A DNA stretch of 7,936 nucleotides from a virus. Taxonomy: Duplodnaviria; Heunggongvirae; Uroviricota; Caudoviricetes. Location: positions 1 through 7,936 of IMG/VR virus record IMGVR_UViG_2695420871_000002, one strand, 5' to 3'. The position numbers were made by a program, and so were the translations under genes. The notes under the pieces are model-generated. The model ran no database searches and was not told the origin of the DNA. It saw nothing but the letters and a program-made list of their open reading frames with translations. Position 1 is the stretch's first letter; each line of letters begins with the position of its first letter. This document shows, piece after piece, positions 4,989 to 5,820 of the stretch.

Positions 4989-5788
4989 TTACCCCCTGAA
5001 GCCTGGCGGGATCGCACTGTCCGGCAACGAGACGGTGTTAACCTGTCGGAGCAACGTCTCAGGCCGAACACCTTTCGGCGCGAACAGGCCCTGGTATTCA
5101 TTGGCGATGCTGTGTCGAATCACCTGCTCAGGTGTAAAACCCTGCTGACGGAATTTTTCCAGTTCCCGTATCGCCCCGTTAGCGCCCTGCTCCGTTCGAA
5201 TCGGTTTTCGCAATGCCTGTCTGAACCGGACCCACTCATGCCAGAGTGTTTCCGGCAACCAATCGGGCAGCTCAATAGCCTCCGGCTCGAATTTTTTAGA
5301 CGCTCGTTTTTGGCGAGGGGGAGATCAGTATTTAGATCTTCCTCTTCCTCTTCCTCTTCCTCTTCCTCTTCCTCTGGTAACGCTTTTTGATCCGTTTGTG
5401 TAACGCTGGCAGCGTTACCTTTTCGTTTCAGTTCGCGTATTTTTGTTACTCGCTCGTTTGTAACCGCCCGTTTTTTTTTAGAGCTTTTTCCGTTATGACG
5501 TTCAAAGTTAGGTAGAGAAAGCCCACCGTCATTTTCGACCAGCCATCCAACCTGAATTAACGCATCAGCAAAACCAGACATAAAAGTGATGCGATCTATT
5601 GCACTTTTTGTAACGCCGCGAGCGTTACAATCTGCATTACCGTCTATCATTTGTTGATCCGCCCATGCCCAGAAGCGAATAACCTTCCCTAATGCGGCAT
5701 CTGGATCAATATTCAGAATCTCAGCAAGCCTGAATATTTCCGGCTTATCCGGCGTAATAACCTCGAGCTTTATCCAGTTTGAAGCCAT
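4989..5788 (-). CDS. Phage replication initiator (O-like replisome-organizer N-domain plus DnaT/O-like C-domain), read in two frames
   Basis: N-terminal ORF 5120..5788 (MASNWIKLEVITPDKPEIFRLAEIL..., SD AGGTGA before ATG 5788) runs through a 12-Glu tract. The conserved-looking C-terminal domain (KKFEPEAIELPDWLPETLWHEWVRFRQ..., ORF 4989..5258, open to about 5324) is in the -1 frame and has no SD or ATG of its own. The frames overlap across 5258-5324 and include the heptamer A_AAA_AAT (complement of 5291-5297). Confidence 0.7.
5338..5373. repeat. Perfect hexanucleotide tandem repeat (CTTCCT)x6, encoding Glu12 on the minus strand
   Basis: Six exact CTTCCT units counted at 5338-5373, inside the initiator ORF linker. 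Confidence 0.95.
5400..5418. repeat. 19-bp perfect palindrome GTAACGCTG-G-CAGCGTTAC (copy 1 of 3)
   Basis: Read directly. Preceded by a GTAACGCT half-site at 5377-5384 and followed by a T-rich stretch including T9 at 5471-5479. Confidence 0.6.
5610..5628. repeat. 19-bp palindrome GTAACGC-CGCGA-GCGTTAC (copy 2 of 3)
   Basis: Read directly; lies inside the initiator N-domain coding region. Confidence 0.6.
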
Positions 5789-5801
5789 TTGTTTTCACCT
5801 T

Positions 5802-5820
5802 GTAACGCTCGCAGCGTTAC
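5802..5820. repeat. 19-bp palindrome GTAACGCT-CGC-AGCGTTAC (copy 3 of 3)
   Basis: Read directly; sits immediately upstream of the initiator gene's SD and ATG (5788). Confidence 0.6.

Follow-up and report, generated by a model that had tools for sequence, protein, structure and literature searches.

What reads the three 19-bp palindromes found in and around the replication initiator gene of a Rac-like prophage, and what do they do there? The palindromes lie in a stretch of 7,936 nucleotides of a Caudoviricetes virus (IMG/VR record IMGVR_UViG_2695420871_000002, positions 1–7,936; hereafter the window), which is the early-right operon of such a prophage, read on the minus strand. The reading that we favour, with a probability of about 0.6, is that these palindromes (boxes 0, 1 and 2 in the direction of the gene) are double-stranded DNA sites for dimers of the N-terminal domain (N-domain) of the initiator, and that with a half-box and a homopurine tract they would form a phage replication origin within the initiator gene.

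The initial annotation had described three palindromes with GTAACGC/GCGTTAC arms, and their positions are exact: GTAACGC-N5-GCGTTAC occurs without mismatch at starts 5400 (box 2), 5610 (box 1) and 5802 (box 0). The spacing, described as about 200 bp, is 210 bp between boxes 2 and 1 and 192 bp between boxes 1 and 0, start to start. With two mismatches allowed there are still just three matches in the window (chance expectation 0.03), three palindromes were reached in none of 200 shuffles, and the heptamer GTAACGC is present eight times against 0.7 expected, with seven of the eight inside 5377–5820. Boxes 1 and 2 are located within the initiator open reading frame (ORF) and share one coding-strand frame in the window, x-N-A-x-x-V-T. 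Box 1 codes C-N-A-R-G-V-T, part of the loop that joins helices 2 and 3 and that the AF2 model gives with lower confidence, and box 2 codes G-N-A-A-S-V-T. Box 0 does lie directly upstream of the Shine–Dalgarno sequence (SD) of the initiator gene (GGTGA, 5795–5799), with a gap of 2 nt. The autoregulation proposed on this ground is possible but unsupported, as box 0 is restricted to a subset of Enterobacterales and a promoter and terminator scan gave no sigma-70-like site near any box and none overlapping box 0. The only ‘terminator’ in the same scan is box 2 read antisense (plus strand) and followed by CTTTTCGTTT (5400–5428), which resembles an intrinsic terminator. This score is probably incidental; such a terminator could halt antisense transcription into the N-domain coding region.

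A protein-to-DNA test, in which a profile of relatives was used, retrieved 70 genomic loci from Enterobacterales, Pseudomonas, Burkholderiales, Planctomycetota, Verrucomicrobiota (including Akkermansia) and other metagenome-assembled genomes. Boxes 1 and 2 persist at 35–55% protein identity in at least five phyla. Box 1 stands at +136 to +160 of the gene in nearly all 70 loci and box 2 at +328 to +391 across phyla, so that 189–231 bp separate them (mean 212, s.d. 11, n = 40), and the ±3 kb flanks of the loci contain zero box matches at one mismatch or fewer. The helical phasing of this distance, a loose cluster near whole turns, is confounded by codon constraint and shared ancestry, and we made no use of it. 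Box 0 is found at −32 to −44 from the ATG in loci of Escherichia/Shigella, Serratia, Winslowiella and Pantoea (L004–L008 and L011), the distance from box 0 to box 1 being 192–204 bp in enterics; it is absent from L009, L010, L012, TL-2011b and all nonenteric loci. A search of the plasmid database gave two records, both phage-like (one is a complete 41-kb circular phage), and no evidence of a plasmid replicon.

The codons that write the boxes are fixed at synonymous positions. In loci of the A type (the A, C and T types being named after base 3 of the box), the Val codon of box 1 is GTT in 34/34, against 33% elsewhere in the same genes; the Gly codon that precedes it is GGT in 28/29, against 22% elsewhere, and the Asn codon is AAC in 34/34. 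Depending on the lineage, box 2 is translated in any one of the three frames (N-A-x-x-V-T, V-T-x-x-A-L or S-R-x-x-R-D). Seven loci carry GTCACGC..GCGTGAC instead: there the Asn has become His (AAC to CAC, nonsynonymous) and the Val codon has changed from GTT to GTG (synonymous), a nonsynonymous change thus being paired with a synonymous one 12 nt away. In L036 both boxes are GTTGCGC..GCGCAAC and the peptide is C-A-P-S-A-T. Across 82 boxes, positions 1–6 and 14–19 are nearly invariant with the exception of pair 3/17, which is complementary in 81 of them, and the two boxes of a locus are of the same type in 40/41 loci. The inner pair 7/13, on the other hand, is broken in 21/82 boxes without compensation. 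Judged from these alignments, selection is on a DNA sequence of two-fold symmetry rather than on the peptide or on a generic hairpin.

Some relatives depart from this arrangement. A clade of Verrucomicrobiota (L042–L065) has no full palindromes and carries four to five half-boxes in the same orientation (nCGTTACA), near +161, +241, +368, +539 and +721, with one inverted TGTAACGC at −57 to −103; this array is an iteron-like variant of the module. In a planctomycete homologue (L067) the box-coding peptide is missing and two GTCAC-type palindromes are found at +819 and +852, 33 bp apart, after a short (115-codon) ORF holding the N-domain match. The boxes of L067 being outside the N-domain ORF, boxes need not sit in N-domain coding sequence. 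The epsilon15 homologue (L074, 33% identity) has another in-frame pair of 19-bp palindromes, GTCCGC-N7-GCGGAC (S-A-x-x-A-D), at +65 and +344 (2566–2584 and 2845–2863 of the locus), 279 bp apart, the first being at a different place in the N-domain.

Which protein reads the boxes can be approached from the DNA side. In a reverse test, viral contigs were scanned by DNA pattern alone and then checked for an N-domain homologue. An exact A-type palindrome lies in or beside such a homologue at 100/120 viral loci. The figures are 40/120 for the C-type palindrome and 32/115 for the T-type palindrome, of which 115 loci were found in the whole collection; the roughly 80 remaining T-type loci give a rough measure of the background. 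A G-type comparison palindrome, of slightly different composition, has a homologue at 2/120 loci. In these pattern-selected loci, covariation was scored at the residue following the invariant Arg of the basic helix of the N-domain. Val holds this key position in 84/100 A-type loci and Met in 32/32 T-type loci; in 39/40 C-type loci the residue is Lys (29) or Gln (10), and Val never occurs there. It is Met in one of the two G-type homologues and Asn in the other, so that no fourth rule can be stated. A neighbour-joining tree of the winged-helix core implies at least 16 switches of box type, and one trio with 72–87% identical cores carries all three types: A in L125 (box-1 peptide NCNADGVT, basic helix RRV, Val codon GTT), C in L246 (NCHADGVT, QRK and GTG, respectively) and T in L362 (NCYADGVT, ARM and GTA). 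Moreover, the neighbouring genes are unrelated among epsilon15, PAN70, TL-2011b, a Pusillimonas phage and the window, and the N-domain is the sole constant partner of the boxes.

The covariation between residue and box is the strongest evidence that the initiator reads the boxes, and it names a candidate contact residue. On comparative grounds, selection acts directly on the DNA elements, whose sequence type follows a single residue of the initiator; the initiator very probably binds them. The proposal, first made from the window, that the palindromes are functional DNA elements tied to the initiator and placed as in the origin of lambda (ori-lambda) is upheld by the conservation of synonymous sites across phyla, by the concerted changes of type and by this covariation.

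The initiator itself was characterized through an intact 262-residue homologue in L001 (WP_038340159; N-domain at residues 1–135), which has no Pfam match but matches phrog_2509 (‘replication initiation protein’) over its full length (residues 1–262; E = 1.2e-89); tblastn places homologues of the PHROG 2509 type in 69 phage records. Sequence and structure prediction suggest a layout of an N-terminal winged helix with a basic-helix domain, a linker and a DnaT-like C-terminal domain (C-domain). The structure model of the N-domain is winged-helix-like. No Pfam family was found for the N-domain in any of 20 members scanned, and Pfam, NCBIfam and PDB sequence searches, including one with a profile of 33 relatives, returned nothing for it. 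Among the members scanned, the only strongly supported Pfam match is DnaT, which covers the C-domain, and residues 170–262 resemble the DnaT C-terminal domain (PDB entries 2ru8, E = 9.5e-5, and 9zbt, E = 3.2e-4). This DnaT-like C-domain applies to the type of the window; many relatives carry other C-domains.

Two further elements adjoin box 2. The extra half-site of the initial annotation exists, but ends at 5383 and not at 5384, and its inclusion in the set is supported by its conservation across relatives: a lone half-box of matching type (GCGTTAC, or GCGTGAC in C-type loci) follows box 2 by 4–5 or 16 nt in 27/51 loci, and is read in two frames (A-L-P or V-T). Immediately beyond it lies a perfect repeat that had been overlooked, as had the pseudogene state of the initiator. 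TRF gives it a period of 6 with 6.5 copies and a 100% match, (TCTTCC)6.5 on the other strand, and it is the longest homopurine/homopyrimidine run of the window, with three GAGGAA units (+18 bp) more than in two close relatives. At this position relatives have GCGTTACC(T)AGAGAAGAGAAGAGAAG, that is, a homopurine (GAGAA)n right after the half-box, of which (GAGGAA)n, coding poly-Glu, is the enteric form. Across relatives the GC fraction at the tract is 0.2 under the locus mean, the dip falling 20–70 bp after the start of box 2. The tract is read in two frames (..PEKRRE.. or ..PREEKRRE..), and its Arg codons are AGA in 64/73 cases, compared with 26/631 elsewhere in the genes. In NC_015459, a complete 41-kb circular phage genome, the boxes are confined to the initiator gene and the sole homopurine run of at least 18 nt is the tract that adjoins them.

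The unwinding element had originally been placed on the other side of box 2, at a T9 run (5471–5479). The run is there, but this role does not hold: it comes from a window-specific expansion of an A run (A6 to A9, +3 bp compared with two close relatives) in a Lys-rich coding stretch, and the GC dip on that side is only −0.05 across relatives. On the opposite side of box 2, the homopurine tract is the low-GC element that relatives conserve (GC −0.2). The AT-rich tract of a lambda-type origin would therefore have its counterpart here in a homopurine repeat.

In the layout that emerges, box 2, the half-box and the tract make up a core at the linker, and one or two auxiliary boxes stand about 200 bp from it. 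From its position, its uniqueness in the genome and its analogy with known origins, we think it probable that this module acts as a replication origin. At the domain linker the initiator would occupy box 2 together with the half-box, and it would also bind box 1 some 210 bp away and, in enterics, box 0 another 190–200 bp away. The bound dimers would then associate and loop or wrap the intervening DNA, the structurally labile homopurine tract beside box 2 would open, and the DnaT-like C-domain and the DnaC-like YdaV would recruit the host DnaB. Both the looping and the opening of the tract are hypothetical.

In ori-lambda, iterons and an AT-rich tract are found in the middle of gene O (PMC7466680). 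Several features are shared with this origin, in lambda, 933W and P27: the initiator gene contains the cis sites, where its N- and C-domains meet; the units, 19 bp long and dyad-symmetric, are presumably contacted by dimers of the initiator; next to them is a low-GC tract that melts easily; and the sites give rise to amino-acid repeats in the protein. The initiator gene also has the position of gene O, after cro- and cII-like genes and before a helicase-loader gene, which is DnaC-like here. There are differences, however. The dispersed layout was rightly described as unlike the tandem iterons of lambda: two or three boxes 190–230 bp apart and one half-box are found here, compared with four to six tandem iterons in lambda, and no array of at least four tandem 18–19-bp iterons is present. 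One box lies inside the coding sequence of the DNA-binding domain itself, and the tract is a (GAGAA)n/(GAGGAA)n homopurine repeat, whereas that of lambda is a general AT-rich block. Moreover, the initiator has no detectable sequence relation to lambda O (no match to Pfam Phage_rep_O), its C-domain resembles DnaT, and in place of lambda P the loader is a DnaC-like protein. Initiators of iteron plasmids (Rep of the RepA/pi/RepE type, and the N-domain of pSK41 RepA) are more distant: no tandem direct-repeat iterons and no promoter-overlapping inverted repeat are found here, the sites are inside coding sequence and there is no sequence similarity, so that the WH1–WH2 combination of two winged helices, iterons and a promoter operator is lacking. 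In Bacillus phage SPP1, oriL lies within gene 38, the gene of the origin-binding replisome organizer; its protein family is unrelated to the present one, its boxes are direct repeats and a second origin copy lies elsewhere in the genome. An origin inside the initiator gene is thus a known plan; what appears to be new is an uncharacterized family spread over several phyla and a rule that links a residue to a base. In the literature on oriJ, ydaU, epsilon15 replication and the motif, we found no description of these boxes.

The closest genetic setting is that of the Rac prophage of K-12, for which an active origin, oriJ, has been reported (PMC3945230). The gene order is the same (cro-like, ydaT, initiator and ydaV), the ydaV genes are homologous and the C-domain is 81% identical to that of K-12 YdaU over 124 residues (BLASTP). 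By contrast, the K-12 N-domain is DUF1376, which is unrelated and has no Pfam match here, and K-12 Rac lacks GTAACGC boxes and has its own scattered GATGTTCAA-like repeats instead. Since residues 139–262 alone align with K-12 YdaU, the sequences indicate that both initiators are mosaic, with the linker as the site of exchange, as is known for lambda O. In K-12 ydaU (4263–4563 of L003), scattered GCTGATGTTCAA-like repeats appear four to five times in the sequence that codes for the N-domain and the linker, a tentative hint that dispersed intragenic sites are a general feature of Rac-group replicons.

A purely autoregulatory role is the main rival to an origin. The boxes would then be operators only, through which the initiator curbs its own expression, either by blocking transcription that reads through from the early promoter or by covering the start region, and the origin would be elsewhere or not defined by sequence. 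Inverted repeats are the usual form of operator for plasmid Rep proteins, box 0 abuts the SD in enterics, and such a role accords equally well with everything that points to the initiator as the binder. Yet there is no promoter-like site at box 0, and most lineages have no box 0; the conserved core lies at the linker, where lambda has its ori, and consists of box 2, the half-box and the unique homopurine tract. The DNA-level conservation of (GAGAA)n in two frames would also be left unexplained, and on balance we consider operators alone unlikely. A function in the messenger RNA (mRNA), where hairpins and the purine-rich run of rare codons would set translation, pausing, frameshifting or stability and the initiator might bind RNA, is more improbable still. 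The predicted hairpins, of about 8–10 bp (the 7-nt arms extended), have compatible energies, but the stem sequence is almost invariant, beyond the needs of pairing, with no G–U intermediates, while the inner pair is often broken and not compensated. All boxes of a locus change type together, the L067 boxes come after the short ORF, and the tract is kept as DNA in two frames, hence codon identity is not the conserved feature. No Rfam match at E ≤ 1 was found in 5200–6000 on either strand. Finally, lone half-boxes and the clade that has only half-boxes cannot form hairpins, which disfavours an RNA-hairpin reading.

It is very improbable that the binder is another protein, be it the DicA-like repressor, DicC/Cro, YdaT, the DUF977 winged-helix–turn–helix (wHTH) protein or a host protein. 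Several DNA-binding proteins are indeed encoded within 2 kb, and a repeat resembling the YdaT box lies at 5852–5869, 32 bp from box 0. However, the published YdaT box, TTGATT-N6-AATCAA (PMC9986795; PMC11879457), the one regulator site that was compared, is unrelated, and we rejected YdaT as the binder on that account. The boxes also persist even though the neighbouring genes differ completely among the five phages and prophages compared above, and switches of type among close relatives follow the initiator residue, a pattern that no host factor shared by five phyla could yield. That the palindromes are a by-product of a duplicated conserved peptide, N-A-x-x-V-T, or of chance is hardly credible. 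In the protein alignment N, A, V and T hardly vary, and the linker contains the motif a second time, but the number expected by chance is far too small and synonymous positions are fixed. The same DNA is read in three different ways, box 0 is noncoding, and in L036 both residues have changed and the palindrome is retained.

A variant of the origin reading would have the tract opened by transcription. Purine-only RNA made on (GAGAA)n/(GAGGAA)n by read-through from the early promoter would form an unusually stable hybrid with the pyrimidine template strand (an R-loop), and initiator dimers on the flanking boxes would hold the region. The DnaT-like C-domain would be a phage-encoded substitute for DnaT of the PriA–PriB–DnaT restart primosome and, with the help of the DnaC-like YdaV, would load DnaB on the purine strand that has been displaced. 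Through single-residue switches, with A read by Val, C by Lys/Gln and T by Met, the origins of co-resident prophages would not cross-react. We regard this R-loop origin as doubtful.

The positions of the elements and of the genes around them are given in Table 1.

Table 1. Elements of the proposed origin and neighbouring genes in the window
Feature	Position	Strand	Remarks
Box 0 (copy 3)	5802–5820		GTAACGC-TCGCA-GCGTTAC, GTAACGCTCGCAGCGTTAC; noncoding, intergenic between ydaT and the initiator gene
Box 1 (copy 2)	5610–5628		GTAACGC-CGCGA-GCGTTAC, GTAACGCCGCGAGCGTTAC; in N-domain coding sequence
Box 2 (copy 1)	5400–5418		GTAACGC-TGGCA-GCGTTAC, GTAACGCTGGCAGCGTTAC; in linker-coding region
Half-box GCGTTAC	5377–5383	− (coding strand)	16 nt past box 2; codes (K)A-L-P
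Homopurine tract (GAGGAA)6.5	5337–5375	− (coding strand)	Poly-Glu; adjoins half-box; candidate DNA-unwinding element or R-loop-prone tract
HNG motif and basic helix (residues 98–124)	5417–5497	−	Coding sequence; conserved
R113–V114 codons	5447–5452	−	Predicted reader of box base 3; the Val is V113 in the numbering of the 262-residue homologue
Initiator gene, YdaU position and type (PHROG 2509)	4989–5788	−	Pseudogene here; phrog_2509 match via the intact homologue in L001
ydaV, DnaC-like helicase loader	4236–4982	−	Directly downstream of the initiator gene; NCBIfam, Pfam
ydaT (cII analogue)	5866–6288	−	Window gene
DicC/Cro-like gene	6271–6498	−	Window gene
DicA-like repressor	6575–6982	+	Window gene

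The loader gene ydaV is well supported (PRK12377, E = 8e-154, and DnaC, E = 1.7e-91, in NCBIfam; IstB_IS21 and Bac_DnaA in Pfam), and the DUF977 (wHTH) and QueH genes are found further along the operon after it. The QueH (epoxyqueuosine reductase) gene, at 2551–3237 on the minus strand, is located between the replication genes and a hok-like region. YdaT-box-like inverted repeats, with two mismatches each, are present at 5852–5869, where the ydaT stop is overlapped, and at 6277–6294, where the ydaT start is overlapped as published for Rac; the window has three YdaT-box-like matches against 0.56 expected. A 23-bp tandem repeat (1.9 copies, 86% match; 7037–7080) lies just downstream of the DicA-like repressor gene.

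The initiator gene of the window is frameshifted, ahead of the DnaT-like domain, by a 10-bp deletion between TCCCCCT direct repeats near 5322 (lesion near 5317–5323 in an alignment with two relatives). The initiator being broken, the module is a recent relic that could work only with an intact initiator supplied in trans. The ydaT gene is 1 bp shorter near 6249/6250 than in E. coli FDAARGOS_944 and is split into two ORFs; together, the two lesions suggest a decaying prophage. The nearest database proteins are Shigella fragments.

If the proposed reading is true, an origin and its recognition rule would be defined for a widespread family of phage and prophage initiators that has no Pfam entry, ranging from Rac-like prophages of E. 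coli and Shigella, through epsilon15, TL-2011b and Xanthomonas CP2, to prophages of Pseudomonas, Ralstonia, Akkermansia and planctomycetes. It would also be an unusually clean case of a protein sequence constrained by the DNA site that it appears to bind. The covariation of one residue with one base amounts to a testable specificity code, of possible use for orthogonal replicons or for predicting cross-activation between the origins of co-resident prophages, and the 19-bp pattern alone works as a sequence tag for such replication modules in metagenomes.

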